Positions 17,151-36,463 of a stretch of DNA of 64,000 nucleotides are shown here, in pieces. The DNA comes from an uncultured Gemmatimonadales bacterium (lineage in GTDB: Bacteria > Gemmatimonadota > Gemmatimonadetes > Longimicrobiales > RSA9). The first letter of the stretch is position 1. Each line of letters opens with the position of its first letter. The translations under genes and the position numbers were made by a program. The stretch spans positions 2,112,001 to 2,176,000 of the forward strand of contig OY970192.1 in assembly GCA_963708135.1 (NCBI GenBank), in the 5' to 3' direction. Under the pieces are notes generated by a model. It did not search any database. It saw only the letters and a program-made list of their open reading frames with translations, and was not told the DNA's origin.

Positions 17151-18077
17151 TTAGCCCGGCGCCGCCACCGCCCGCTCGGCGGCCGAGCCCAGCAGCGGAT
17201 AGCCGAAGTGCGTGAGCATCGGCCGTGCCTCGACCGTAACCCGCGCGCGCTCTTCCTCGCTCAGCCGGGCAATACTGCCAGCGTTCATGTTCCGGATCGG
17301 CTCGATCCTCTCGTGCACGCTCCACGAGCCGCGCAGATCGATGCTGCCGCTCCCCCACGCCTCGAGGCCAAGGAAACCGAGGATCCGAGCCAGCTCGTCC
17401 CCGGGCGATTCCGCCAGATCCTCGTAGCGCACCCACAGCACCTTCTTCAACCGAGCGGCATCCTCCACCAGCACCTCGTTCGAACGGTTCCACTGCCTGG
17501 CACACAGCTCGATCGGCCACCCCTCCTTCAGGTGGAACGGCTCCGCCTTCCGCCGGATTCCCTCCGCCACCGCGTAGCCGTTGCGCACGATCGCAATGAA
17601 ATGGGCGTTCTCGAAGTGCCGCTCGAGCCAGAGCGTACGCGCCGCATTCGGCGGCGACTTCTCCAGGAACACCGGCCGCTTCCGGTCCAACCGCATCAGC
17701 CACTCCCGCTTCAGCCGGGCGGGATCCGGCCCGCCGTCGTCGGGGCCGAGCCGGAAAAGGTCCTCCCGGAGCACCCACATTCTCGGCAGCCCCAGCTCGT
17801 AGTCGCAGACCAGCTGATCCGTCAGGAACTGACCTTCGTCGGGCAGGGGCGCGATCGCCGGATGTGCCCCGAGCAGCGACATCAGCAGCTCCGTACCCGA
17901 GTTGTAGCAGCCGACCACGAAGACCCACTTCTCCGGCACGACCATCGGCGTGAGGCTGATCCGGAGCTCACGGTGCAGCCGGCCCAGGCACTCCCGTCCG
18001 ATCTCTCTCCAGCGCGTGCCACCAGAGAGGCGGAGTTCGCGGTCCTTCCGCTGCCGGCCGCCGGCTCTTGCTTCCAT
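17151..18077 (-). CDS. Sulfotransferase
   Basis: FVVGCYNSGTELL, LEKSPPN, IVRNGYAVAEG, VRYEDL. Start approximate (ATG 18077). Confidence 0.82.
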   Translation of the reverse strand: MEARAGGRQRKDRELRLSGGTRWREIGRECLGRLHRELRISLTPMVVPEKWVFVVGCYNSGTELLMSLLGAHPAIAPLPDEGQFLTDQLVCDYELGLPRMWVLREDLFRLGPDDGGPDPARLKREWLMRLDRKRPVFLEKSPPNAARTLWLERHFENAHFIAIVRNGYAVAEGIRRKAEPFHLKEGWPIELCARQWNRSNEVLVEDAARLKKVLWVRYEDLAESPGDELARILGFLGLEAWGSGSIDLRGSWSVHERIEPIRNMNAGSIARLSEEERARVTVEARPMLTHFGYPLLGSAAERAVAAPG

Positions 18078-18144
18078 TTCGCAGGTCCCCCGTCTGCTGG
18101 CTCTCGCCCGGTATCCCGAGCGGGCGGTTTCGCCCGGCAACACG

Positions 18145-18162
18145 TGTTGCGTGCGCGCAACG
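18145..18162. promoter_or_regulatory. Palindromic activator site, copy 3
   Basis: TGTTGC-GTGCGC-GCAACG, preceded by an extra GCAACA half-site at 18137-18142. Confidence 0.7.
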
Positions 18163-18213
18163 GCGCGCGCCGCGCACCTGCGCGGGAGAATGCCCGGAGC
18201 GAGGCGCTCGCTG

Positions 18214-18229
18214 CGGCAAGATCCATGCG
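18214..18229 (+). promoter_or_regulatory. sigma54 -24/-12 promoter
   Basis: CGGCAAGATCCATGCG; its 14-nt core GGCAAGATCCATGC is identical to the element at 9671-9684. Confidence 0.7.
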
Positions 18230-18337
18230 CTGAGGCGGCCGCGCCCCCGGCGCTCGGCCGTGCGGGTCTATCCGGAAAGCGACGGGAACCGAGGGGACGA
18301 ACGTGGCGGAACCAGCGTGTCGTGGGGGCGGGGCCGG

Positions 18338-19740
18338 ATGAGCACGCGGTCCACCCAACTGAAGGAGCTCGCGGGTAGCTCCACTCTGCTGGTGCACGGC
18401 TACGCCGGCATGATGTCGGCGCGCGCCGCCTGGGGCGCCGTTCGAGGGCGTCCGCTCGAGGCGACGCACCACCTGCTCCGGGCCCTGCGCGCGGTGGGCA
18501 GCGAGGGTTTCGGCCGCTGGCGCCACGAGCGTCTACGGCGGCTGGTGGCGGGCTTCTGCGCCGAGGCGGATGGTCGGCTCGCGCCGGTGGCCGGGAACCG
18601 GCTCCTTTCGGCGTTTCAGCAGGGCGATCGTGCGCGCGCGATCCGGGCTCGGTTCACGCGGCTCTCGCTCGACCATCGTGTCCGGCTGCGGTTCCCGCGC
18701 GAACCGGAGGACCCCGAGCGGCAGGGAGACCTGATCGTGCTCAAGCCGTTCGATCGAGACACCGGAGAGCGGGGCGTGCTCCTGGTGAACTACACGGAGG
18801 GGATCGACCGCTTCGCGGCCGTCTTCGACGTGTCGGCGCTGGCCGGGCGCTACCAGATCGTGCTGGAGCCCAGCTCGTGGGGTTATGAGGACCTCACGTT
18901 CCTGCGCTACCTCGGACGCGATCTGGACGTGATCGTGCAGGCACCGTGGCGGCGCGACTTCGAGTTCATCCGGGACCTGCGCTCGAATCTGCGGCCGACG
19001 CGGATCGGGGCCGGGGACTGGACGGATCCGGGTGTATTCAGGCCGAAGCAGGGGGGGAGCGACGCTTCGACCTCGCCATGGTATCGAGCTGGAATCCGCT
19101 CAAGCGGCACGCGGAGCTGTTCCGGACGCTGGCGGAGATCAAGCGGCGCCACGGGCGTACCCTGAGCGCCGTGCTCATCGGCTATCCCTCCGGCTGGACG
19201 CGGGACCGGATCGAGCGGCTCGCCCGTGAGCACGGCGTGGCGGAATCCTGCGCGATCTACGAGAGCATCCCACAGAGCCAGGTGGCGGAGCTGGTGGCCG
19301 ACTCACGGGCCTACATCCTGCTCTCGCGGCGCGAGGGCGCCAATCGGGCGCTCTACGAGGCGCTCTTCTGCGACACGCCGGTGATCGTCCCGCGCGATCA
19401 CAGGGGCGTGAACACCGATCAGGTCGTGCCCGAGGTGGGCGTGCTGTTCCGGGACGGCGAGCTTCCCGAAGCCATTCTTTCCGTGGTCGATGGGCCGCGC
19501 GCGTTCCAGCCCAGGCATTGGGCACTACGCAACACCGGGTTCGAGAACGCGGCGCGCGCGCTCAACACCGTGCTCCGGGAGGGCGCCCTCCAGCGCGGAT
19601 GGCCATGGACGAAGGACATCGTGCCGAAGAAGAACGTGCCCAACCTGCGCTACGCCCACCCGGGCAGGTACGCGGCGTTCGAGCCGGAGTACCGGTCTCT
19701 GGGCGGCTTTCTGCTTCCGCCGGAGCCGGCCGAGGCATGA
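18338..19740 (+). pseudogene. GT4-like glycosyltransferase, frameshifted at a G7 run (19051-19057)
   Basis: The frame from ATG 18338 reads ...FRPKQGG, and the GT C-terminal half (ERRFDLAMVSSW..KRH..LSRREGANRALYEALFCD) is in another frame. One extra G would join them into a 467-aa protein. Confidence 0.75.
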
Positions 19741-21245
19741 GCGGCGCGAACGCTCCGTCCAAGCCCGGCGAGATGAGCGAGATCAGGAGACTGGGGAAGC
19801 ATACGGCGATCTACGCCACGGGGACGCTGCTCGCGAAGCTCGCGAGCTTCCTCATGCTGCCGATCTACACGCACTTCCTCACCCCGTCCGACTACGGCGT
19901 CCTCGAGCTTCTGTCGATGACGATCAATGTGGTCGGCATGCTGGCGGGGATCGGGATCGGCGTGAGCGTCTTCCGTTTCCGGGCCGAGTACGCCGAGGAG
20001 CGGGACAAGGCGGCCGTGATGAGCACCGCCGCGATCGCCATGACGGTGACCGCCCTCGCCACCGCAGGGCTCGGGATCTTCTTCTCCCCGGCGCTGAGCC
20101 ACGTGATCCTCAAGGGCGCCGGGCGCGCCATCTACTTCCGCGTGTTCTTCCTGACCTATCTGGCGCAGACGCTGGAAACGATCCCGCTGCTGCAGGTTCG
20201 GGCCGAGGAGCGGTCAACGTTCTTCGTGGGTGTCAGCACGGCGAAGCTCGTCGGCATGCTGACGCTGAACATCTATCTCGTGGCCATCCGGGGAATGGGC
20301 GTGATGGGCGTGCTGGTCAGCAGCCTCGTCGTGACGAGCACCTCGGCGCTGCTGCTGGGGATCGGGATGTTCCGTCGGACGGGCATGCGCTTCGACCTCG
20401 AGAAGCTCGGAAGGATGGTCGGCTACGGCTATCCCATGGTGTTCGTGTTCGTCGGCAACTTCATCCTCGTGTTCTCGGATCGTTACTTCCTGCAACAGTT
20501 CTCGAGCACGGCGCAGGTGGGCCTCTACTCCCTCGCCTACCAGTTCGCGTTCGTGCTCTCCGCGTTCGCGATGACTCCATTCCAGCAGATCTGGGCGCCG
20601 CAGCGCTTCGTGATCGCCACGCGCCCGGACGCCAGGGAGATCTTCGCCCGCGTCTTCACGTACCTCAACCTGGCGCTGGGCGCCATTGCCCTGGGCCTCG
20701 TGCTGTTCGCCGGCGACGTGCTGCGGATCATGTCGGCCCCGGCGTTCTGGCGGGCGGCTCCCATCGTGCCGATGCTCGTGGCGGCGCAGGTGCTGTGGAG
20801 CTGGTGCAACTTCGTGAACATCGGCCTGCTGGTGGAGGAGCGGACGGGAAGCCTCGCCGGGGCGTCCACGGTCGGCGTCGCCGCGACGCTGTTGCTCAAC
20901 TTCCTCCTGATCCCGCGTTACGGCATGTGGGGTGCCGCGGGCGCCACGTTCCTGGCGTACGGCGTGCGTTTCTCCGCCATCTACATGGTCGGACAGCGCA
21001 GGTACCCGATCCCGTTCGAGTGGGGCCGCCTGGGGCGGCTGTACTCGATCGTCGCGGCGGCGGCAGCCGTGCGGCTGATCGCGGGACAGATGCCACTGGC
21101 CGGCTCCGTCGGGCTGAGCGCGGCACTGGCCCTCGTCGCGGCGGGAACCGCGTACGCCTTCGTGTTGAAGCGGCCGGAGCGCGAGAGGCTCCGGGAGCTC
21201 ATTCGAAGCAGGACCCTGCTGGCGGCGGCCGCGTTGCGCGGATGA
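19737..21245 (+). CDS. wzx: Wzx-type polysaccharide flippase
   Basis: LLAKLASFLMLPIYTHFLTPSDYG, SDRYFL..VGLYSLA, LLIPRYGMWGAA; many TM segments. Confidence 0.88.
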   Translation: MSGANAPSKPGEMSEIRRLGKHTAIYATGTLLAKLASFLMLPIYTHFLTPSDYGVLELLSMTINVVGMLAGIGIGVSVFRFRAEYAEERDKAAVMSTAAIAMTVTALATAGLGIFFSPALSHVILKGAGRAIYFRVFFLTYLAQTLETIPLLQVRAEERSTFFVGVSTAKLVGMLTLNIYLVAIRGMGVMGVLVSSLVVTSTSALLLGIGMFRRTGMRFDLEKLGRMVGYGYPMVFVFVGNFILVFSDRYFLQQFSSTAQVGLYSLAYQFAFVLSAFAMTPFQQIWAPQRFVIATRPDAREIFARVFTYLNLALGAIALGLVLFAGDVLRIMSAPAFWRAAPIVPMLVAAQVLWSWCNFVNIGLLVEERTGSLAGASTVGVAATLLLNFLLIPRYGMWGAAGATFLAYGVRFSAIYMVGQRRYPIPFEWGRLGRLYSIVAAAAAVRLIAGQMPLAGSVGLSAALALVAAGTAYAFVLKRPERERLRELIRSRTLLAAAALRG

Positions 21246-21261
21246 CCGGAGCTCTCCTCCC

Positions 21262-22182
21262 ATGACGACGACCCGGCTGCGGGTGAAGGGCGGGATCGAG
21301 CGGCTGCTCTGCCGCAGCGGGGTGGCCCGGCTTGCCCGCGCGGCGCGACGCGAGCGCTCGTTGATCCTGGCGTACCACAACATCGTGCCGGACGGCCAGC
21401 CGGCGGGCGGGGAGATGAGCCTCCACCTCCCGCAACGCAGCTTTGCCGATCAACTCGATCTGCTTCTGGAAACGCATGACATCGTGCCGCTCGAGGCCTT
21501 GTTCTCTCCACAACGCGACTCGAGGCCGCGCGCCGTGATCACGTTCGACGATGCCTACGCGGGCGCCGTGACCGCGGGGGCGGACGAGCTTCTCCGGCGG
21601 GGGCTGCCCGCGACGTTCTTCGTCGCGCCGGCCTTCGTGGGCGGCGCCACCTTCTGGTGGGACGTGCTGGCCGGTGCGCATGGACGCGGCCTGGCACCGG
21701 CCATCCGGGCGGTGGGGCTCGACGCGCTCGAGGGCGACGACCCGGCCATCCGCGCATGGGCGGCGCGCGGCGGGCTCGAACCCTCCATCCTTCCGGCCCA
21801 CCAGCGGTGCGCCACGGAGGCGGAGCTCTCGCGCGTTGCCCGCGAGCCCGGAATCGTGCTCGCCTCACACACCTGGAGCCACCGGAACCTCCCGCGGCTG
21901 GAGGCGGGCGAGCTCCTGACCGAGCTCACGCGGCCGCTCGAATGGCTCCGCGAGCGCTTCGAGAACGTGCTTCCGTGGCTGGCCTATCCCTACGGGAGGA
22001 GCTCGCCGCCGGTCGAGGCGGCGGCGGAGCGTGCCGGCTATGCCGGCGCGGTGCTCGTGGAGGGCGGCTACCTGCACACCTCCGCTCTTGCGGCCTGCTT
22101 CAGCATCCCGCGGATCAACGTCCCGGCAGGAATCTCGATCGCCGGGTTCGAGCTGAGAGCGGCGGGCGTTCTCGGGGACTGA
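21262..22182 (+). CDS. Polysaccharide deacetylase (CE4/NodB-like)
   Basis: ILAYHNI, ITFDDAY, ATFFV, ASHTWSH, LAYPYG. Confidence 0.88.
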   Translation: MTTTRLRVKGGIERLLCRSGVARLARAARRERSLILAYHNIVPDGQPAGGEMSLHLPQRSFADQLDLLLETHDIVPLEALFSPQRDSRPRAVITFDDAYAGAVTAGADELLRRGLPATFFVAPAFVGGATFWWDVLAGAHGRGLAPAIRAVGLDALEGDDPAIRAWAARGGLEPSILPAHQRCATEAELSRVAREPGIVLASHTWSHRNLPRLEAGELLTELTRPLEWLRERFENVLPWLAYPYGRSSPPVEAAAERAGYAGAVLVEGGYLHTSALAACFSIPRINVPAGISIAGFELRAAGVLGD

Positions 22183-22197: not shown

Positions 22198-22806
22198 ATG
22201 GGAACCATACCCGCACGTTTGCTGGATCGCTACGCTCGCTACAAGCTCAAGTACGCGTCGGATCTCGTGTTCGTGCACATCAACAAGACGGGCGGCAGCA
22301 GCATCGAGCGGGCGCTGGGGCTGCCGTTCCAGCACAAGACCGCGCTCGAGCTCAGGCGCGAGCTGGGTGAGCGCCGTTGGGCAAGCCGCTTCACGTTCAC
22401 CTTCGTTCGCAACCCCTGGGACAAGGTCGCGTCCCACTACCACTTCCGGGTGAAGACCAATCAGACCGGCCTTGCCGAGCGTCCCCTCCCCTTCACGGCA
22501 TGGGTCCGGCTCGCCTACGGGGAGCAGGATCCGAGATACCACGACCAGCCGAAGATGTTCATGCCCCAGGTGTGCTGGATCAGCGACGAGTCCGGGCTGG
22601 TCATCGTGGACTTCGTCGGACGCTTCGAGCGCCTCTCGGACGACTTCGACGCCATCTGCCGGCGCCTCGGGCGCACCTCGACTCTGCCCCACCTGAAACG
22701 CTCGACGAACGACGATTACCGGCGCGAGTACTCGGCGGAAGCGGCCGAGATCGTCGCCGTGCGCTTCGCGGAGGACATCCGGCTGTTCGGCTACACGTTC
22801 GACTGA
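22198..22806 (+). CDS. Sulfotransferase, Sulfotransfer_2 family
   Basis: FVHINKTGGSSI, FVRNPWDKVASHY, DFVGRFERL, ends DIRLFGYTF. Confidence 0.88.
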   Translation: MGTIPARLLDRYARYKLKYASDLVFVHINKTGGSSIERALGLPFQHKTALELRRELGERRWASRFTFTFVRNPWDKVASHYHFRVKTNQTGLAERPLPFTAWVRLAYGEQDPRYHDQPKMFMPQVCWISDESGLVIVDFVGRFERLSDDFDAICRRLGRTSTLPHLKRSTNDDYRREYSAEAAEIVAVRFAEDIRLFGYTFD

Positions 22807-22955
22807 GACCACCCTCCGGGCATCCGCCACCCGGAAATTTTGTTCGAGCCCGCCACAAGATTTCACCTCCCGCACCTGGCAAGACCCCCGGGATCCCATC
22901 CAGAGTTCCTTTCGCCACACGAGCTTAGGGACAGCCCGCCGTCTCTCCAACCAGC

Positions 22956-22971
22956 TGGCGCGTGCATTGCG
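22956..22971 (+). promoter_or_regulatory. sigma54 -24/-12 promoter upstream of the riboswitch
   Basis: TGGCGCGTGCATTGCG, close to the TGGCAC-N5-TTGC consensus. Confidence 0.7.
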
Positions 22972-23012
22972 CCCGGTCGCGCTCGCCACTCCGGTCGGGT
23001 GGCCCACAGGAA

Positions 23013-23102
23013 TGCTGCTCAGAGCAAAGCGGTCGAAAGGCCGCGGCGCAGAGCCATGGGGCTAACGCGGGTCCACCCGCCATGCTCGCCAGGCCGCCAG
23101 CA
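23013..23102 (+). ncRNA. GEMM-I cyclic-dinucleotide riboswitch aptamer, A20 variant (predicted 3',3'-cGAMP-responsive)
   Basis: P1 TGCTG(23013-17)/CAGCA(23098-102); J1/2 CTCAGA then GCAAA; P2 GCGGTC-GAAA-GGCCGC; GGCGCAGA; P3 with the CTAA...ATG tetraloop receptor; C92 equivalent at 23097. Lies in the 5' UTR of the gene at 23237. Confidence 0.85.
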
Positions 23103-23236
23103 ACTGGTTCCGCGTAGAGCGGAAGCTGTTCGCCGGCGGCCTTCTTCGTCGCCGCCCCGCATGGGGGCAGACTTCGCAGGAAATGTATCAGCCGGGTCGT
23201 TGATGAAGACGGCCGCAACTGCAGGAGGCACTGACG

Positions 23237-25630
23237 ATGGTGCGCAAGTCCAGGAAGCCGACAGGCGTTCCGGCGGCCGTGTTCGGGCTGCTCGCCACGA
23301 CGGTTCTCGTCGTGGCATCGTGTACGGGAGACAACATGTTCACGCCGGACGTGGAGCGCGCTCCCGTCTCGATCCAGCTGACCCCGTCGCAGATCACCTT
23401 CACGAGCCTTGGCGACACGGCATCGATCCGGAACGTACCCGGTGGCGCGATCACCTGGAGCGTGGCGGATCCGGGTGTGGCCACCGTCAGCAGCTCAGGA
23501 AAGGTAAGAGCCGTCTCGAGCGGCTCGACCTACGTGAGGGGGCACAACGGCAACTCGACGGACAGCGTGAAGGTGCACGTGACGCAGCAGCCCGCCACGA
23601 TCACGGTCTCGCCTGGATCCCAGACGCTGAACGGCCTCGGCGCCCAGGCACGGCTTAGCGCCGTCGTGCTGGACGAAGGCGGAAGCGTGGTAAAGAACGC
23701 CTCGGTCAGCTGGCGCGCCGACAACGCGGCGGTGATCGGTGTGAACAACAGCGGGCACGTCACGGCCGTGGGACAGGGCTCCACCTACGCGGTGGCGGTT
23801 TCTGGAGCAACCTCGGATTCGGCCGCCATCACCGTCGTGCAGGACGTCACGACCATCTCCATCCAGTCGGCCGGGGTCTCCCTCGCCGTCGGCGATTCCG
23901 TCACCCTGTCGGTGACCGTGCTCGACGCCAGCGGTGCGGTCGTGGACTCGGCGCCACTCGCCTGGAGCTCATCGAACCCCGGGGTCGCCACGGTCACCAA
24001 CGGCACGGTCAAGGGCGTTGCGGCCGGCACGGCTCAGGTCACCGCCACGAGCGGCACGGCGTCGAGCTCGGTGACCGTGACGGTCACCGCCCTGAGCACA
24101 GCGCCGGCGCCCGTGGCCTCCGTTACCGTGTCGCCCTCGTCCTCGAGCATTCAGCAGGGCGCCACGGTCCAGCTGGCGGCGACGACAAAGGACGCAAGCG
24201 GGACCGTGGTCACGGGGCGCACCATCACCTGGTCGAGCTCGGACGCCGGCATCGCGACGGTCTCCAGCACCGGGTTCGTGACTGCCGTGGCCGCCGGCTC
24301 GGCGATCATCACCGCGACCAGTGAGGGCGTGAACGGCGCGGCTGCCGTGGGGGTCACCGTGCCCGCCCAGGCGCCGGCGGCGTCGATCACCATTGCCCCG
24401 GCGGACGCGACGGCTCAGGTTGGTGGCACAGTCCAACTCACGGCCACCCTGAAGGATGCGAACGGCAACGTGCTGACCGGACGGACCATTACCTGGGCAT
24501 CGCTGGCGCCCGCGATCGCGACCGTTTCGGCCGCCGGGTTGATCACCGGCGTTTCCGCCGGCACCGCGGCGATCACCGCCTCCGCCGACGCTCAGACCGC
24601 GACGGCGCAGGTGACGATTTCGGCGCCGCCCACGTCGAGCGTGTCCGGCGGGTCGATGCACGAGCCGGCGGACATGACCACGTTTGTCGCGATGGATGGC
24701 AGCGTACGCACCCCTGCCGGCTGGACCGCGACGGACGCGTGGACAGGAGCGAACGGATGGCGTGATGCCACGACAGCCGTCGTGCCCGACGGCAGCAATC
24801 CCACCGGGAGCGGATACGCCATCGAGAAGCGCTGGTACGGCCCCGAATCGGTCACGGCCGGGAGCGGCGCCACTGCGAGCTCCGTCCCCTGCACCCTCAA
24901 ATACGGCAGCTCGAGGCCGGAGGCATACAAGGGCCGCATGCTCGTGGCCGGCGGCGACACAGTTCAGATCACCGACTACACCTCGGGCGCCCTGACCCTC
25001 GCCTCGCCCCTTTCGAGCGTCCCGGCTGCGGGAGGCGCGATCACCGTGCTGGGCTCCGGTACGGACGCGGCAAGCCACACCGGCGTTCTCGGCGTCTGGC
25101 ACTGGTTGACGCTGGACCCCGCGTTCACACCCGCAAAGACGCTCTACATTCGGATGCGTGTATGGTTCAGCTCCAACTGGCCCGATACGGACCCCAACCT
25201 AGCCGGGATGAAGTTCTTCTACTTGCGCACGAGCGAGACGACGCACAACGTCCTGTTCACGTCGAACGGCGGTTCTCGCTTCTGGCAGACCTACTGGGCC
25301 ACCTTGACCAGCAACGGCGCCGCCGGCCATATCAACTACGACACCTGGTCGCCCACGGCGAACCTGGCGCCGAAGGGGAACTGGCATACGGTCGAGTTCC
25401 TCTTCGTGACCAATTCTGCGGTGGGTGTCGCAGACGGAAGCGTGACGCTCTGGGTGGACGGCGCACTGGCGACGCAGACGACCGGCGTCGAGTTCATTGC
25501 CGCCGACGACTCCGACAAGACCAACGACTTCGACGGTCTCGAGTTCTACAACCTTCGGGGTGGGGCACACCACTATTTCGATCGCGATGACACCTTCCGG
25601 CTGGGAGAGTTATACGTCAGCGGGAAGTAG
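23237..25630 (+). CDS. Surface lipoprotein with tandem Big_2-type Ig-like domains and a C-terminal ConA/polysaccharide-lyase-like beta-sandwich
   Basis: GGAGG RBS; lipobox VVASC; about 5 repeats of WSSS.P.VATV...G.V.AV..G.A.ITA; C-terminal GNWHTVEFL...ADGSVTLWVDG. Confidence 0.8.
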   Translation: MVRKSRKPTGVPAAVFGLLATTVLVVASCTGDNMFTPDVERAPVSIQLTPSQITFTSLGDTASIRNVPGGAITWSVADPGVATVSSSGKVRAVSSGSTYVRGHNGNSTDSVKVHVTQQPATITVSPGSQTLNGLGAQARLSAVVLDEGGSVVKNASVSWRADNAAVIGVNNSGHVTAVGQGSTYAVAVSGATSDSAAITVVQDVTTISIQSAGVSLAVGDSVTLSVTVLDASGAVVDSAPLAWSSSNPGVATVTNGTVKGVAAGTAQVTATSGTASSSVTVTVTALSTAPAPVASVTVSPSSSSIQQGATVQLAATTKDASGTVVTGRTITWSSSDAGIATVSSTGFVTAVAAGSAIITATSEGVNGAAAVGVTVPAQAPAASITIAPADATAQVGGTVQLTATLKDANGNVLTGRTITWASLAPAIATVSAAGLITGVSAGTAAITASADAQTATAQVTISAPPTSSVSGGSMHEPADMTTFVAMDGSVRTPAGWTATDAWTGANGWRDATTAVVPDGSNPTGSGYAIEKRWYGPESVTAGSGATASSVPCTLKYGSSRPEAYKGRMLVAGGDTVQITDYTSGALTLASPLSSVPAAGGAITVLGSGTDAASHTGVLGVWHWLTLDPAFTPAKTLYIRMRVWFSSNWPDTDPNLAGMKFFYLRTSETTHNVLFTSNGGSRFWQTYWATLTSNGAAGHINYDTWSPTANLAPKGNWHTVEFLFVTNSAVGVADGSVTLWVDGALATQTTGVEFIAADDSDKTNDFDGLEFYNLRGGAHHYFDRDDTFRLGELYVSGK

Positions 25631-25748: not shown

Positions 25749-27698
25749 TCAAGGGCACCAATGATCGTGCCACGCATAGAGCATGAGGATTGCCCAGAGG
25801 GCCAAAGCGAGGTCATGGTACCCGCGGTTGAAGGCGCGCCACATCCGGGCCACCTCGTCCCTCAGGATGATGTCCTCCAAGTCCGGTCGGCGGGAGAGAA
25901 GCATTTCCTCCGCCCAGGGGGCCAGTTGCCCGCGAAGCCACGCTTCGATGGGCACCGTGAAACCCACCTTGGGACGGTCAACCAATTCCGGTGGAACGTA
26001 CCGGTGCAGCAACCGCCGCAGAATCCACTTGCCCTCGCGGCCGCGTATCTTCATGGTGCCGGGTAGCCGCCACGAGAACTCCACGACCCGATGATCCAGC
26101 AAGGGAACGCGCAACTCGAGGCTCACGGCCATGCTCGCCCGGTCCACCTTGGCGAGCAGGTCATCCGGGAGATAGGTGCGCTGGTCCGTAAGCATGGCAC
26201 GGGTAAGAAAGGACGTGCCCGGCGCGCGCAGCGGTATGAGGCCACTCCCTTCCCCGCCATGCGCACCACACAGATAGACGTGCGGATTCGCGGAGACCGA
26301 CATCAAGGAGCGGTACACCTCCTCCGGGGAAGAGGCGCGAGCGAGTCGAGCCAGCTTCGTGATCTTTCGGCCGGGCAGGCGGTGCTGAAGGGTGTGCGGG
26401 ATGAAGCTTCGCGCGAGATCGTAGCCGCCTTCCCAGAAGGCCTCGGGGACGGCCAGAACGGCGGCCGCGGCCGTGCGACGGATGAGGCGAGGCACCCGAT
26501 CCAGACGCTGCATCCACCGTTCCGTCTCGATGTACCGGTTGTAGCCGCCGAACAACTCATCCCCGCCGTCTCCGGATAATGCTACAGTCACGCTCTGCCT
26601 GGCGAGACGGCATACGAGAAGCGTAGGAATCTGGGAGGGATCCGCGAACGGCTCATCGAAGATCAGCGGCAGCTCGGGTACGGTCCGCAGGGCATCATTG
26701 GCCGTAAGCACCAGCTCGGTGTGGTCCGTGCCGAGATGCGCTGCGATGCGCGCTGCGTGTGGCGCCTCGTTGTGCTTTTCCTCTTCAAAGCCGATGGAGA
26801 ACGTGCGAATGGAGCTCGAAGAAGAGCCCTGCATCAGGGCCGCGATCGTCGAGGAATCCACGCCTCCGGAAAGTAGCGCGCCCAGCGGCACATCCGCTTC
26901 CATCTCCAGTCGGACCGCGCGGTGGAGGATGGCCTCCAGCTCGTCCACAGCCTCTTCATCCGAGCCTGTGAATGGGTTCTCGACGCGCAGCCGCGCCACC
27001 TCATCCAGGTCCCAATACGGCAGCGCGGCTGGCAATGGTGCGTCTGGCCTATCCAGAGTCAGCAGATGTCCAGCGGGGAGTTTGTAAACTCCCTTGAATA
27101 TGGACCTGGGGGTTGGGACGTATAGGTATCGAAGATATGAAGCGATAGCCGATCCGTCCAGCGACCGGTCGAAACCCGGGAGGGCCATCAACGCCTTGAG
27201 CTCCGACCCGAACGTCAGCGTTCCCTTCGAACTGCAGTAGTAGAGCGGTTTCTCTCCCAGCCGGTCACGGACCAGCGTCAGTCGGCGCGCCTGTCGGTCC
27301 CAGATCGCCAGGGCAAACATCCCGACGAGTCTCGCGATGCTGCCCCGGATCCCCCAGTGATCGATCGTCGCAGCCAGGACTTCGGAATCCGAATGCCCGC
27401 GGAACGCGGTTCCAGACTGCTCGAGTTGTAATCGAAGGGCGCGGTGGTTGTACACCTCTCCATTGAAGGCGAGGACATACCTGCCGGAAGGCGAGTGCAT
27501 GGGCTGATGGCCCAGCGCGGAAAGATCGAGGATGGAGAGACGCCGGAACCCCAACCCGATTCCGTACGCCGCATCGGTCCACACGCCGTGATCGTCGGGT
27601 CCGCGATGGCGCAGGGTATCGGCCATCGTCCGGCAAGTCGAGACGAGCGAGTCCTCAGGTGCTCCAGCAGTCGTGAAAACACCGACGATGCCACACAT
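25749..27698 (-). CDS. asnB: Asparagine synthase-type glutamine amidotransferase (EPS-associated)
   Basis: Starts MCGIVG (Ntn Cys); HRGPDD, RRLSILDLS, FNGEVYN, LSGGVDSS, SGDGGDELFGGY, KVDRASMA. Confidence 0.92.
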   Translation of the reverse strand: MCGIVGVFTTAGAPEDSLVSTCRTMADTLRHRGPDDHGVWTDAAYGIGLGFRRLSILDLSALGHQPMHSPSGRYVLAFNGEVYNHRALRLQLEQSGTAFRGHSDSEVLAATIDHWGIRGSIARLVGMFALAIWDRQARRLTLVRDRLGEKPLYYCSSKGTLTFGSELKALMALPGFDRSLDGSAIASYLRYLYVPTPRSIFKGVYKLPAGHLLTLDRPDAPLPAALPYWDLDEVARLRVENPFTGSDEEAVDELEAILHRAVRLEMEADVPLGALLSGGVDSSTIAALMQGSSSSSIRTFSIGFEEEKHNEAPHAARIAAHLGTDHTELVLTANDALRTVPELPLIFDEPFADPSQIPTLLVCRLARQSVTVALSGDGGDELFGGYNRYIETERWMQRLDRVPRLIRRTAAAAVLAVPEAFWEGGYDLARSFIPHTLQHRLPGRKITKLARLARASSPEEVYRSLMSVSANPHVYLCGAHGGEGSGLIPLRAPGTSFLTRAMLTDQRTYLPDDLLAKVDRASMAVSLELRVPLLDHRVVEFSWRLPGTMKIRGREGKWILRRLLHRYVPPELVDRPKVGFTVPIEAWLRGQLAPWAEEMLLSRRPDLEDIILRDEVARMWRAFNRGYHDLALALWAILMLYAWHDHWCP

Positions 27699-27808
27699 CT
27701 GCTCACGGCTCCACAATGACCGAATTGGGTAGCAGAATCGACGCAAGCCGATCGGGTTCGAACGTCACCCGCGAGGGAGACGAATCTAACCTCGAGAAGC
27801 GTCCGACA

Positions 27809-28870
27809 TTAGAACGTCGGAATGCGGCGCGCCAGCGTGGGGCCGACGCGGTTGGCGGCGGCCAGGGGCAGGCGTCTCCAGGCGGCGGTAGCGAGGCGGA
27901 AGGCGGTGCCGCCTGGCGATCGGCCATTGGCGACGGCGCCGCGGGACCAGGCACTCCACGAGAGAGGCTCGTCGCGGCCACCCCATTGCAGCTTGAAGAG
28001 ATGGGTGCCGCCGCCGGGAGTGCACCTGCCGAAGTTGAACGTGCGGGCGCGGCGGCGGACGACCTCCTCCATGAATGCCCAGTAGAGCAGCATGTTGGCG
28101 CCGGTGCGGTTGAACTCGCGCAGCGAGGAGCCCCAGGTCATCTCGTACTCATCGCGCCAGAGGAAGCCGTATCCCGCAGCCAGCGGGATCTCATGGTCGT
28201 ACACGACGCCACAGATGATGCTGTCTCCGAACACATCAGGCAGGCGGTCGAAGAGGGCACGCGGCAGGACCGGCGTTCCCAGGTCGCGCATGTTGCGCCG
28301 GAACACCTCGTAGAAGGCATCCACCTGCTCGACCCCGAACCTGACCTCCATCCCGGCCTTCTGTGGCCGCCGGACCTTGGTTCGGAGCTTCGTCGGGAAC
28401 GCGTTCCACAGGTCGGTCGGCTCCGGCGGCAGATCGAGGAGAACGGTCACCTTGGGGCGGCCCGGGGGAAGCTCCGCCCCCTCCTGCGCCAGGTAGCGAC
28501 GCCGCAGCTCGAGGCGGTCCGCGCCCGATCGGCGCGCCTCCGCCTCTGCCTCCATCAGGAGGCGTCTGGCCGCGGCCGGGTCGCCCACGGGGCCGCCGTA
28601 GTTTAGGAACGGCATCGAGATGAGATGATGGCCGAAGAGGCGGCTGCGCATCCGGACGAGCGGAAGTATGGCGGCGATGTGGCCGTCCGGCGAGACCGCC
28701 GCGCGGAACAGCGGCTCGTGGCCGAGCACGTCGCTCATGATCTCGCGCCAGCCGGAGAGGTGGCAGAAGGTCGCGGAAGGATGGGCGAGAGCGAACTCGT
28801 CCCATGCGAGGCAGTCCGGAGGAGAGGTAACCGCCACCCCGCTCGGAACGGTCGAGCCCGTTCGGCTCAT
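27809..28870 (-). CDS. FemAB-related GNAT protein (exosortase-system associated)
   Basis: WDEFA..HPSATFCHLSGW, SMPFLNYGG, RNMRDLGTP, FNFGR, FKLQWG. ATG 28870 is coupled to the upstream stop. Confidence 0.87.
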   Translation of the reverse strand: MSRTGSTVPSGVAVTSPPDCLAWDEFALAHPSATFCHLSGWREIMSDVLGHEPLFRAAVSPDGHIAAILPLVRMRSRLFGHHLISMPFLNYGGPVGDPAAARRLLMEAEAEARRSGADRLELRRRYLAQEGAELPPGRPKVTVLLDLPPEPTDLWNAFPTKLRTKVRRPQKAGMEVRFGVEQVDAFYEVFRRNMRDLGTPVLPRALFDRLPDVFGDSIICGVVYDHEIPLAAGYGFLWRDEYEMTWGSSLREFNRTGANMLLYWAFMEEVVRRRARTFNFGRCTPGGGTHLFKLQWGGRDEPLSWSAWSRGAVANGRSPGGTAFRLATAAWRRLPLAAANRVGPTLARRIPTF

Positions 28871-29724
28871 GCGTGCTCCAGTGCGCCCAGGCTGCTGGCC
28901 ACCGTGCCGAACGGGAACGTGTCGAGCAACCGGCGCAGCCGCGCCTCGGTGCGCTCCAGCCCACCATAATGGCGGATCCGGGTGGGCCATGGCACGCGCA
29001 GGCGCGGCTGAAGCGAATCGAGCTCCCAGGGATGTGTGTAGATGGTGGCCGAAACGCCGCGCCGGCCGCTGCCGCGCAGGGCCGCATGGATCAGAGCGGG
29101 CGGGAGCAGGCGGAGATAGGCGCCGCCTCCGGCGGGAAACGTCCCCCCGAAGCGGCGAAGCGTGGCGGGGGGGAACTCGGCGAGCCGACCGGCCGGACGC
29201 TCGATCCAGTGCGGGTCCGGGCGTCCGCCCGCGTACCCGTATCCTCGCCGACGGACGGGAAAGAGGCTGGAGTCGTAGGCGTAGCCCTCCTCCACCAGGA
29301 CGTCCAGCGCCCATTCCCGCCCGCGCACGATCGAGAAGCTCGGAGCCCGAAACCCGAGGACCGGCTCACCGGTCAGGTCCTCGATCAGCACCTTGGACCG
29401 GCGGACGGAGGCGCGGAACTGATCGGCGGTCTGGTGCGTCACCCTCACGTGGTCCCAGCCGTGGGACGCGACCTCGTGTCCGGCCGCCGCCAGCCGCTTG
29501 ACGAGCGCCGGGTGCCTCTCCGCGACCCAGCCGAGGACGAAGTGCGTGGCCCGCGCGCCGCTGCCGTCCAGCAGGGCGAGGAGACGGTCCATCCCTTCAT
29601 ACAAGCGGCTGACGCGGGTCTCCCAGCTCCCGCGCTCCACGTACGGTTCGAGCGCGGACACCTGGAAGTACTCCTCGACGTCTACCGTGAAGTGGTGTCT
29701 CGTGACTCCCTTTGCGGCGTGCAT
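28867..29724 (-). CDS. Polysaccharide deacetylase (XrtA-system type)
   Basis: FTVDVEEYFQV, LGWVAER, HEVASHG, GFRAPSFSI, YDSS, GGGAYLR, HPWELD. Confidence 0.9.
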   Translation of the reverse strand: MHAAKGVTRHHFTVDVEEYFQVSALEPYVERGSWETRVSRLYEGMDRLLALLDGSGARATHFVLGWVAERHPALVKRLAAAGHEVASHGWDHVRVTHQTADQFRASVRRSKVLIEDLTGEPVLGFRAPSFSIVRGREWALDVLVEEGYAYDSSLFPVRRRGYGYAGGRPDPHWIERPAGRLAEFPPATLRRFGGTFPAGGGAYLRLLPPALIHAALRGSGRRGVSATIYTHPWELDSLQPRLRVPWPTRIRHYGGLERTEARLRRLLDTFPFGTVASSLGALEHA

Positions 29725-34684: not shown

Positions 34685-36463
34685 GTGGGCGCAGAAGCGT
34701 GGCTGACGCTGGCGGTGGTGGCGACCGCCGTCGTGGTGCTCGCGCGGGACATGGTTTCGGCGGCGGTGGTGGTCTTCGCGGCGGACGTGGCGCTGCTGCT
34801 CCTTCACGTGGTCACGCCAGCGCAGGCGTTTGCCGGTTTCGCCAACCCGGCTCCGATCACGGTGGCGGCGCTGTTCGTGCTGGCCCGCTCGGTCGAGAAG
34901 ACGGGAGCTCTGCAGCCGATCATCGACTCGATGCTGGGCGGGCGGCGTAACGGCCGGATTACGCTCTTGCGGCTGCTTGCGCCGGTGACGGCGGCATCCG
35001 CGTTTCTGAACAACACGCCGATCGTGGCGATGCTGGCGCCGCAGGTGGCGGACTGGGCGGAGAAGCGGGGGCGCTCGGCGTCGGCGTATCTGATTCCGCT
35101 GTCGTACGCCACGATCCTGGGCGGGCTGCTGACGGTGATCGGGACATCGACGAACCTGGTGGTATCGGGGCTGATGGAGCAGGCGGGGATGGCGCCGATC
35201 GGGATGTTCGAGGTGACGAAGGTCGGGCTGCCGATCGCCCTGGTCGGCCTGGCGGTGCTGGTGGGGTTGGCGCCGGTGCTGTTGCCCGAGCGGCGAGCGG
35301 CGAGGCAGCAATTCCGGGAGGACGTGCGGGAGTTCGTGATGCGGACGTTGGTCGAGGCGGACGGCCCGCTGGTGGGCAACACGGTGGAGGGCGGACACCT
35401 GCGGCATCTGCAGGGGGTCTTCCTGGTGGAGATCGAACGGGGGGGTGAGGTGATCGCGCCGGTGGCGCCGACGACGGTCCTGCACGGGGGGGATCGGCTC
35501 ACGTTCGTGGGGCGGGTGGACCTGGTGCGAGATCTCCAGAACACGCGGGGGCTCCGCTATGCGGAGGAGGAACACGCGCTGGCGACGGCCGGGAGGGAGC
35601 ACACATTCTTCGAGGCGGTGATCAGTGGGGCATCTCCGCTGGTGGGTCGGACGCTCAAGGAGACGGATTTCCGCAAGCGCTACCAGGCGGCCGTGCTGGC
35701 GATCCACCGTGCGGGGGCCCGGGTTCACGAGAAGCTCGGTCAGGTGAAGCTCAAGGAAGGCGACACACTGCTGCTGCTTTCGGACCGCGAGTTCGCCTCG
35801 CGGTGGCGCGACCGCAGCGACTTCCTGCTGGTCTCGCACCTGGGGGGAATGCGGCCGACCAGCTCGCGGCAGGCCGTCCTGGTGGGCCTCGTCGCTCTGG
35901 GCGTAATCGTCGTCGCGGGTGCCCACCTGCTGCCCATCCTGCACGCCGCGCTGCTGGCGGCACTGGTGCTCGTGATCGGTGGCGCGCTCACGCCGGCGGA
36001 GGCGCGCGACGCCGTCGAAGTCGACGTGCTGGTGGTAATTGCCGCCTCGTTCGGGGTCGGCGCGGGCATCCAGAGCTCCGGCCTGGCGGCTGTCCTCGCC
36101 TCGGGGATCGTCGGCGGGTTCGGCCCGTGGGGGCCCGTCGGTGTGCTGCTGGCGGTCACGCTAGCCACGATCGTGCTCACGGAGCTGATCACGAACAACG
36201 CGGCGGCGGCACTTCTGTTTCCGATCGCGATCACGACGGCCACAGAGCTCGGGCTCAACCCGAGGCCGTACGCGATCGCGGTCGCCATGGCCGCGTCGGC
36301 GAGCTTTCTCACGCCGATCGGGTATCAGACGAACACGATGGTCTACGGCCTCGGGGGCTACCGATTCGGGGACTTCACGCGGCTCGGCGCGCCGCTGACG
36401 TTGCTGGTGGTCGCTACCATTGTCGTCGTGATCCCGCTATTCTGGTCTCTCTCCTCGTCCTGA
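34685..36463 (+). CDS. SLC13/CitMHS-type permease with two TrkA-C domains (probable sulfate uptake)
   Basis: SAFLNNTP, TVIGTSTNL, TELITNNAAA, FLTPIGYQTN..V.G.GGYRF.DF; directly upstream of cysD. Confidence 0.85.
   Translation: MGAEAWLTLAVVATAVVVLARDMVSAAVVVFAADVALLLLHVVTPAQAFAGFANPAPITVAALFVLARSVEKTGALQPIIDSMLGGRRNGRITLLRLLAPVTAASAFLNNTPIVAMLAPQVADWAEKRGRSASAYLIPLSYATILGGLLTVIGTSTNLVVSGLMEQAGMAPIGMFEVTKVGLPIALVGLAVLVGLAPVLLPERRAARQQFREDVREFVMRTLVEADGPLVGNTVEGGHLRHLQGVFLVEIERGGEVIAPVAPTTVLHGGDRLTFVGRVDLVRDLQNTRGLRYAEEEHALATAGREHTFFEAVISGASPLVGRTLKETDFRKRYQAAVLAIHRAGARVHEKLGQVKLKEGDTLLLLSDREFASRWRDRSDFLLVSHLGGMRPTSSRQAVLVGLVALGVIVVAGAHLLPILHAALLAALVLVIGGALTPAEARDAVEVDVLVVIAASFGVGAGIQSSGLAAVLASGIVGGFGPWGPVGVLLAVTLATIVLTELITNNAAAALLFPIAITTATELGLNPRPYAIAVAMAASASFLTPIGYQTNTMVYGLGGYRFGDFTRLGAPLTLLVVATIVVVIPLFWSLSSS

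Follow-up and report, generated by a model that had tools for sequence, protein, structure and literature searches.

A GEMM-I riboswitch aptamer of the A20/G48:C90 subclass precedes an Ig-repeat lipoprotein gene in a genome where no known cGAMP synthase was found

Which cyclic dinucleotide, cyclic di-GMP (c-di-GMP) or cGAMP (3′,3′-cyclic GMP-AMP), operates a GEMM-I riboswitch that has adenine as its specificity base, in a bacterium in whose genome no known cGAMP synthase was found? This question is raised by a 64,000-nt stretch of the genome of an uncultured Gemmatimonadales bacterium (contig OY970192.1, positions 2,112,001 to 2,176,000; hereafter the window, to which positions without a contig prefix refer unless a locus is named). 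A GEMM-I aptamer at 23013..23102 on the + strand lies there in the leader of a gene for a lipoprotein with immunoglobulin (Ig)-like repeats. An earlier sequence-only reading had proposed that the aptamer carries the A20 signature of cGAMP sensors, and that the organism may use cGAMP signalling to control a surface protein in an exopolysaccharide (EPS) locus.

A cmscan search of the window matched the element to the Rfam family RF01051 (c-di-GMP-I, GEMM-I) at 23013-23101 (+) with 59.7 bits against a gathering score of 35 (E 3.6e-9). The match covers the full model (positions 1-87 of 87), and no other family exceeded its gathering score in the 64 kb. The motifs that had been named from sequence alone, GCAAA, a GAAA-capped P2, CGCA, a receptor-like P3 and C92, are all present in the alignment, where P2 (23029..23044, helix 3) carries the GAAA tetraloop and P3 (23052..23095, helices 4 and 5) the CUAA/AUG tetraloop-receptor-like motif. 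The proposed 5-bp P1 can be read from the sequence as UGCUG (23013..23017) paired with CAGCA (23098-23102). Among 39 relatives of the same long-P3 class, P1 (helix 1) is 97.9% paired with both-sided changes in two of its five pairs (U1:A101 versus C1:G101), compensatory changes occur in four of the six P2 pairs, and covariation is seen in helices 4 and 5 too. When the Rfam structure plus P1 was scored over these members, 92.4% of cells were paired and 15 of 27 pairs were compensatory; none of 500 shuffles matched the observed values, and slid controls reached at most 0.072 against 0.247. The three-helix junction of c-di-GMP-I, made of P1, a GNRA-capped P2 and the receptor P3, is upheld by this covariation.

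The base equivalent to G20 of the Vc2 aptamer (model position 11, unpaired and directly 5′ of the G21-C22 pair) is A23023, as had been claimed. The intercalating A47 (A23050) is present and is followed by G48 (A48 in Vc2; 23050..23051 for the two bases in the aptamer alignments). On the opposite side lie C90, G91 and C92 (23095..23097), of which C90 is the partner of base 48, and C92 (C23097, model position 83) pairs with the G of the ligand. The canonical c-di-GMP-I pocket G20/A47/C92 is only partly matched, since A47 and C92 are present and position 20 is A. G20 to A is the substitution that is described as defining subtype Ib (GEMM-Ib), and the GEMM-Ib pocket, A20 with A47 and C92 kept, is what we found. 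These results confirm that the window element is a genuine cyclic-dinucleotide riboswitch aptamer of the A20 type.

The A at 23023 is also found in a sequencing run, one Logan contig of which is identical to the window over 22900-23300 (0 differences). The sequencing run behind this contig, labelled soil metagenome, is the only one that holds the full stretch and is probably the source sample, and the match is therefore not independent; a second run covers 22900-22973 only. A20 was further found in one paralogous aptamer of the same genome (contig C1, 3995314-3995402), returned by the search for other A20 aptamers, and in 52 further aptamers of relatives. A sequencing or assembly error was ruled out by the Logan identity together with the A in 54 of 123 aligned aptamers.

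These 123 aptamers come from an order sample of 61 genomes (the window's and 60 relatives), 37 of which contain GEMM-I matches; three matches from genomes flagged as unpublished were left out, and no claim depends on the genomes so flagged (G016, G019, G038, G116 and G224). Position 48, the second junction base following the G45-C46 pair, varies together with position 20: G48 occurs in 51 of the 54 A20 aptamers and in only two of the 69 others, of which 67 lack it (Fisher p 2e-28, ignoring shared ancestry). The association holds in both architectures, as the long-P3 aptamers comprise 39 of the A/AGA type versus 27 of the G/AAA type, and the short-P3 aptamers 11 versus 33. G48 stands opposite C90 in 52 of 53 cases, and A48 has U across from it in 43 cases and C in 27. 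Vc2 is reported to have A48 in a Hoogsteen pair with U90, which lies 5′ of C92 by two bases (PMC11705072). C92 is present in all 54 A20 aptamers, and C occupies position 92 in 120 of the 123. The pocket signature of the subclass is thus A20/A47/G48:C90/C92. In a phylum sample, the long-class signature was found in 61 of 401 genomes and 32 of 148 genera, three of the matches being chance-like. It is confined to the class of the window's organism (0 of 19 genomes of other classes), with at most six copies per genome and with tandem arrays.

Two minor pocket types were seen in the order sample. Four short-P3 aptamers, L089 (G054), L094 (G050), L099 (G044) and L104 (G020), have C at position 20 with A48 and U90; we know of no ligand assignment for a C20 GEMM-I pocket. 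The aptamers L088, L102 (G052) and L116 (G060) have A20 with A48 and U90 kept, and may be intermediates between the two main pocket types.

If the aptamer is of the cGAMP type, what in this genome could make or degrade the ligand? The genome (G000) is a single contig of 5.45 Mb with 72% G+C and is 97.65% complete. It holds five GEMM-I matches, namely the two A20 aptamers and three G20 aptamers with a shorter P3. Both A20/G48 aptamers score 57-60 bits with every pocket base intact. The family RF03167 was ruled out for the G20 aptamers, as A47 is present and their scores fall under its cut-off. Hypr GGDEF enzymes carry Ser or Thr in place of the canonical Asp (Ser348 in GacA), nine residues past the sugar-face Asn and always with GGDE[F/Y], according to PMC6456294; cGAMP-specific HD-GYP phosphodiesterases are described as having RxxQ/N in place of Rxx(K/R) (bioRxiv 10.1101/600031). 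We read all 13 PF00990 (GGDEF) matches of the genome: ten have Asp (nine intact and one partial with GGDDF), the other three are degenerate, and Ser or Thr occurs in none. In tblastn searches, six Hypr proteins matched the genome only within the GGDEF-domain part, at 30-42% identity and at the loci of Asp-type cyclases, and a Hypr query with a MASE1-type N-terminus gave no match. PF18144 (the SMODS domain of CD-NTases) gave no match in the genome, with positive controls matched; PF21654 and PF03281 gave none there and none in any control genome, so that these two blanks are weak. The four intact HD-GYP domains read RPYK, RPYR, RPYR and RSYR at the motif position, which was anchored on the PmGH structure 4mcw, and a fifth is degenerate; none of the intact ones is of the RxxQ/N type. 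Two DAC-domain synthases for cyclic di-AMP (c-di-AMP) are encoded. In two near-complete genomes of the same family (G032 and G035), none of 19 GGDEF matches has Ser or Thr. The window's genome has kept the reader, and the known writer and eraser were not found. The proposed cGAMP signalling in this organism was accordingly not borne out, and the companion expected of a GEMM-Ib aptamer, a cGAMP synthase in the same genome, was not matched.

The aptamer overlaps a predicted intrinsic terminator (23091..23149, +), identified by RNAfold and a terminator scanner, with a stem at 23091-23142 followed by UUCUUCGU. The 5′ half of this stem shares bases with the base of P3, C92 and the 3′ strand of P1. 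In RNAfold, the hairpin alone has -35.6 kcal/mol, and the minimum free energy structure of the full leader (-75.8 kcal/mol) contains it, compared with -64.7 kcal/mol when the aptamer is enforced; the scanner flags 23125-23140 plus CTTCTTCGTC. The same design recurs among relatives. In 12 of the 15 Ig-gene leaders with long A20/G48 aptamers, the aptamer 3′ end GGCCGCCAGC, which comprises the P3 base, G91, C92 and the 3′ strand of P1, forms pairs with GCUGGCGGCC further downstream, and the resulting strong hairpin directly abuts a U-rich run. All 20 leaders examined from the sister family f4 have this hairpin, mostly with longer U-tracts. A Shine-Dalgarno sequence AGGAGG (23223..23228, +) can be read 8 nt ahead of the ATG of the lipoprotein gene, which starts 135 nt past the aptamer. 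No sigma-70-like promoter was found in 22750-23300.

A terminator stem that shares aptamer bases, with a U-rich tract before the start codon, is the arrangement of an intrinsic-terminator ON switch. As the predicted terminator and the ligand-competent aptamer exclude each other, read-through would be expected on ligand binding, and we infer from the folding that the riboswitch is a transcriptional ON switch. Without ligand, the aptamer 3′ end (P3 base, C92 and P1 3′ strand) would pair with 23127-23142 to form the terminator, and transcription would halt before the gene. When a G-containing cyclic dinucleotide is bound, P1 and C92 would be locked, the terminator would be blocked, and the Ig-repeat lipoprotein gene would be transcribed. 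The Geobacter pilM riboswitch is described with a mutually exclusive aptamer and terminator in the same ON design (PMC9262584).

Although the window's own genome lacks the Hypr signature, the subclass stands beside Hypr enzymes in related lineages. The Hypr pathway and cGAMP riboswitches have been described essentially in Geobacter and a few deltaproteobacteria, and papers of the field themselves term the pathway narrowly distributed. By degenerate pattern and translation, we found true Hypr enzymes in six of the 61 order genomes (G004, G006, G020, G030, G052 and G058), and a protein search returned the same six, which share a GAF-GGDEF architecture. A20/G48 aptamers are present in 29 of the 61; five of these have Hypr and 24 gave no match to the Hypr pattern. 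In the phylum sample, the GAF-type Hypr was found in two of 401 genomes. When the GGDEF proteins of the sister-family genome G105, which is 100% complete and has four aptamers, were enumerated, a second family of Hypr enzymes came to light, marked by a membrane N-terminus, the motif NDQYGHLAGS and GGDEF. Its multi-pass N-terminus (L177 574-1977 in G105) looks MASE1-like in sequence. Full-length orthologues (E <=1e-100) were found in 44 of the 401 genomes, and all 29 orthologues that were read (L184-L212) have the Ser and the strict GGDEF motif. The phylum-wide Hypr count covers these two orthogroups, which were found by reference.

Across the sister families f4 to f9 (298 genomes once two unpublished ones were removed), 29 genomes have both the aptamer and the MASE1-type Hypr, 22 the aptamer only, 14 the enzyme only and 233 neither, an odds ratio of ~22, ignoring phylogeny. 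The aptamers of the Hypr-positive sister genomes share the sequence core and the terminator of the window's, and one of them, L214 of G105, is its near one-to-one counterpart. G105 and G064 each contain two RxxQ HD-GYPs (RPYQ and RVYQ), and so hold reader, Hypr writer and RxxQ eraser together. These results suggest that the A20/G48:C90 subclass can probably read cGAMP. In the sister lineages, it may serve as the reader of a cGAMP pathway with the Hypr GGDEF as writer and the RxxQ HD-GYP as eraser. The sequence-only assignment of A20 to cGAMP is thus supported as a link between subclass and Hypr in sister lineages and is not supported as cGAMP use by the window's organism.

Two variant proteins turned up in the same searches. 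In locus L176 of G105 (C2:214494-214970), the specificity residue of a GGDEF domain is Asn (NDRYGHEAGN, along with GGDEF), which is neither the Asp nor the Hypr Ser. Apparently orthologous HD-GYP-like proteins read DGFDAATSRRVYQ in L277 (G105) and L279 (G064) versus DGFDAATSKRSYR in the window's genome (C1:1990993-1991457), a Q/R switch at the base-reading position, with the Q form in the Hypr-positive genomes.

The two pocket types also differ in the genes that follow them. Targets were called as the first Shine-Dalgarno-preceded open reading frame (ORF) of at least 100 aa after the aptamer, a crude rule by which many ORFs were cut at the locus end. Big_1/Big_2 proteins follow 15 of 35 A20/G48 aptamers (36 before a mis-called ORF in locus L002 was dropped), all 15 behind the 26 long-class aptamers scanned, and none of 45 G20/A48 aptamers; 45 of 54 ORFs were scanned for the latter, nine having been dropped (two duplicates of an ORF present in one of the two scans and seven apparent wrong-frame calls). 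The G20/A48 targets are GH26, GH6, GH16, M23, S8, PAS-GGDEF-EAL and curlin-repeat proteins, or have no known domain. In Hypr-positive genomes, 15 of 16 aptamers precede Big_2 proteins. The long A20/G48 class has another conserved target, a single-transmembrane (TM) peptide, which measures 45-51 aa in four genomes and has a called length of 62-69 aa in two. The paralogous aptamer of the window's genome (locus L002, 1501-1589, outside the window) is itself followed by an ORF for a 48-aa single-TM peptide with the ribosome-binding site GGAGGAG, and small single-TM peptides were also seen behind long A20/G48 aptamers in G006, G010, G012, G032 and G035. One of the three G20 aptamers of the window's genome (L003, C1:1255723-1255800, minus strand) precedes a 281-aa lipoprotein gene, with a GGEEF cyclase gene (L012, 1256189-1256644, minus strand) ~390 nt upstream of the aptamer.

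Both pocket types can occur in one leader. In six leaders of five genomes, an A20/G48 aptamer with its terminator is followed ~90-160 nt downstream by a G20/A48 aptamer (L223 and L224 in G100, L227 in G254, L229 in G201, L231 in G168 and L025 in G008). In the five sister-family tandems, the second aptamer runs directly up to the ribosome-binding site of a gene for a Big_2 lipoprotein, and the gene downstream of L025 encodes a CEMIP beta-helix protein. These mixed tandems look like natural two-input dinucleotide gates. Two pocket types in series speak against both reading one signal in the same way. Homotypic A20/G48 arrays were seen too, with three aptamers in L220 (G064 C36) and two in L218 (G064 C3) at a spacing of ~157 nt, both upstream of Big_2 lipoprotein genes.

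Which ligand, then, works the switch in the window's genome? We give a probability of roughly 0.45 to a dual reader: by analogy with characterized A20 pockets, the subclass would bind both dinucleotides, and in this genome it would respond to c-di-GMP with an affinity unlike that of the three G20 aptamers. c-di-GMP would be bound via the protonated adenine of the A20 pocket, and cGAMP would be integrated where a Hypr enzyme exists. The caveat in the sequence-only reading that some A20 RNAs accept both ligands proved to be the key point. According to PMC6140456, A20 pockets bind c-di-GMP through a stably protonated adenine. In that report, Vc2 G20A binds c-di-GMP with a dissociation constant (Kd) of 53 nM and cGAMP with one of 120 nM, the natural Clostridium beijerinckii aptamer Cbe 1-2 binds c-di-GMP at 30 nM, tighter than cGAMP, and bispecificity is termed widespread in the class. 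A20 alone has been associated in the literature with anything from ~1000-fold cGAMP selectivity to a preference for c-di-GMP. We favour the dual-ligand account because it requires no unknown enzyme. Moreover, a cGAMP-dependent ON switch would silence its gene once the writer was lost, yet aptamers, pocket bases and terminators are conserved in such genomes. All readings considered, c-di-GMP is somewhat favoured as the acting ligand in this genome. c-di-AMP was ruled out as the ligand by the conserved C92, which needs a G in the ligand.

Several points weigh against the dual-reader account. The in-line probing constants cited for Gs1761 of Geobacter are 0.53 nM for cGAMP and 660 nM for c-di-GMP, and with like selectivity c-di-GMP would be a poor trigger. 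A20 and G48 persist, with no reversion, in 20 genomes of the window's family (the window's genome and 19 genera), and this retention could equally fit a need to read an adenine-containing ligand. The U-tract of the window's terminator is interrupted. On the side of method, enzymes were called absent by known signatures only, the Hypr scan of the order relied on a single degenerate pattern that is blind to a changed ND..GH..G context, and the co-occurrence counts ignore phylogeny.

The strict retention of A20/G48 in genomes without Hypr, with the window's aptamer and terminator intact, could alternatively mean that the aptamer is cGAMP-selective and that the organism makes cGAMP by an enzyme outside the known signatures, neither a Ser/Thr GGDEF nor a SMODS CD-NTase. 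This is in line with three features of the subclass: it goes with Hypr GGDEFs and RxxQ HD-GYPs in the sister families, it has a regulon of its own, and it is wired in series with G20 aptamers. It is rather unlikely, as the markers of writer and eraser were both missing from a one-contig, 97.65%-complete genome, the enzyme would have to be widespread given the 24 Hypr-less aptamer genomes of the order, and natural A20 aptamers with good c-di-GMP binding are documented. The broader form, in which A20/G48:C90 is cGAMP-selective and the reader-only genomes in general make cGAMP or another adenine-containing dinucleotide by a synthase of a kind not yet known, is a shade less likely still. Conversely, the aptamer is more widespread than either enzyme family (61 of 401 genomes versus 44 and two for the Hypr families), and in f4 to f9 the 22 of 51 aptamer genomes without the MASE1-type enzyme and the 14 enzyme genomes without the aptamer would suit an affinity-tuned c-di-GMP riboswitch everywhere, with its overlap with Ser-GGDEFs due to shared ancestry. 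The reported preference of Cbe 1-2 for c-di-GMP and the Vc2-like G21:C46, kept in place of the pyrimidine-purine pair of Gs1761 and pilM, point the same way. We consider such a pure c-di-GMP subclass improbable in view of the odds ratio in f4 to f9, even though that ratio ignores phylogeny, and of the conserved mixed tandems, which are hard to explain if both pockets read one ligand alike; moreover, A20 is, in the literature cited here, the sole base change known to admit cGAMP.

A reader without writer or eraser, in a genome with two c-di-AMP synthases, might also be an orphan left permanently terminating after the loss of cGAMP signalling, or a sensor of another ligand such as a linear pApG-type dinucleotide. 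We regard this as more doubtful again, because all pocket bases of both A20/G48 aptamers are intact, purifying and compensatory selection on the class is clear, and the demand of C92 for a ligand G speaks against c-di-AMP. That a Hypr-type GGDEF of this very organism makes cGAMP for the riboswitch to read, as first proposed, would agree with the A20 signature and with the Hypr enzymes of six related genomes; it is contradicted by the direct enumeration of the GGDEF matches and by the lack of an orthologue of either Hypr family, and is very improbable.

The dual-reader account can be set against the systems described so far. GEMM-Ib aptamers of Geobacter (Gs1761, Gm0970, pilM) share with the window's aptamer the GEMM-I fold, A20, the intercalating A47 and C92, as well as the ON design (pilM) and extracellular or surface targets including polysaccharide genes. 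The junctions differ. As depicted in PMC6274999 and PMC9262584, Gs1761 has A14 followed by C15:G40 and pilM has U15-G38, whereas the window's aptamer keeps the Vc2-like G21:C46; Gs1761 further has A41 followed by A42 paired to U73 (PMC6274999), where the window's aptamer has G48 opposite C90. The pyrimidine after A20 and the A after the intercalating A are thus not matched here. The Geobacter regulon comprises cytochromes and pili, in contrast to the Ig-like lipoproteins of the window's subclass, whose host here has no Hypr GGDEF. Vc2 G20A and Cbe 1-2 share A20 in an otherwise c-di-GMP-I-like pocket and, by their binding of c-di-GMP in PMC6140456, set a precedent for an A20 aptamer working with a main ligand other than cGAMP; where the window's class has G48/C90, the Hoogsteen pair A48-U90 is found in Vc2, and Cbe 1-2 is likened to the window's class by its binding description, not by sequence. 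Canonical c-di-GMP-I aptamers of the Vc2 type, including the three G20 aptamers of the same genome, share the covariance model, the helices and the tetraloop/receptor design, but have G20/A48 and hydrolase, peptidase or PAS-GGDEF-EAL targets instead of A20/G48. All parts of the Hypr-cGAMP pathway, GacA/GacB-like writers, PmxA-type RxxQ erasers and GEMM-Ib readers, are present in G105 and G064. In domain order, the GAF-GGDEF Hypr found in G004, G006 and others matches Myxococcus xanthus GacB, the commonest writer here has the membrane MASE1-like N-terminus, and the window's genome has the reader only.

The regulated gene (23237..25630, +) encodes a 797-aa lipoprotein with the lipobox VASC. In agreement with the surface Ig-repeat protein proposed from the sequence, Pfam matches are four Big_2 stretches together with Big_1 and Big-like domains. 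The C-terminal ~330 aa give a weak polysaccharide-lyase-like signal (Atlas 0.82; PF14099 and PF21294 at E 0.009, under the cut-off). This domain (residues 465-797; 24629-25627, +) corresponds to the precomputed family PF26918; its single-sequence AlphaFold model has a mean predicted local distance difference test score (pLDDT) of 35, and one 466-aa homologue with 55% identity was found in a set of 5.8 billion proteins. No orthologue of the Ig-repeat protein was found in the species genomes searched, the window's own excluded, which gave two weak Big_2 matches.

The gene lies in an EPS locus. A sulfotransferase gene (22198..22806, +; PF03567, E 4e-11) ends the preceding EPS operon, and downstream an AsnB-type amidotransferase and a FemAB XrtA/PEP-CTERM-associated gene (25749..29314, -; NCBIfam) run convergently, so that the switch controls one gene as a monocistronic unit. 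The FemAB protein matches TIGR03019 with 284 bits (cut-off 260), and TIGR03108 scores 550 bits, under its cut-off of 817. Pfam identifies Wzy_C, GT4 glycosyltransferases, an ATP-grasp protein, a polysaccharide deacetylase and two sulfotransferases among the neighbours. The two sulfotransferases, Wzy_C and the FemAB match are in keeping with the exosortase/sulfated-EPS context that had been suggested. For three long ORFs of the locus (17208-18233, 18068-19165 and 19490-21265, +), neither Pfam nor NCBIfam gave a match; as the first two overlap, no more than one of their frames can be real. Just past the locus, 34685-36463 (+) encodes a CitMHS/TrkA_C transporter with a Na-sulfate-symporter-like region, which would fit a supply of sulfate to the two sulfotransferases.

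GEMM-I, the A20 subtype, Hypr GGDEFs and RxxQ phosphodiesterases were already known. We did not find an earlier description of G48:C90 in the literature, though the original GEMM-Ib papers may mention position 48. As far as checked, what is new comprises the class-wide A20/G48:C90 signature, the Ig-lipoprotein regulon, the mixed A20/G20 tandems, the association with a family of membrane-anchored Ser-GGDEFs and the frequency of reader-only genomes. If the reader-only genomes do make their ligand by a novel synthase, the riboswitch would be a genomic beacon for finding the enzyme. Throughout an entire class of high-GC bacteria, the A20 subclass is abundant and has a pocket signature and an Ig-lipoprotein regulon of its own; in some families it is accompanied by a membrane-anchored Ser-type GGDEF, not characterised before, and by RxxQ phosphodiesterases. 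The reader-only genomes such as that of the window are a natural experiment on A20 pockets as cGAMP sensors, dual sensors or retuned c-di-GMP sensors.

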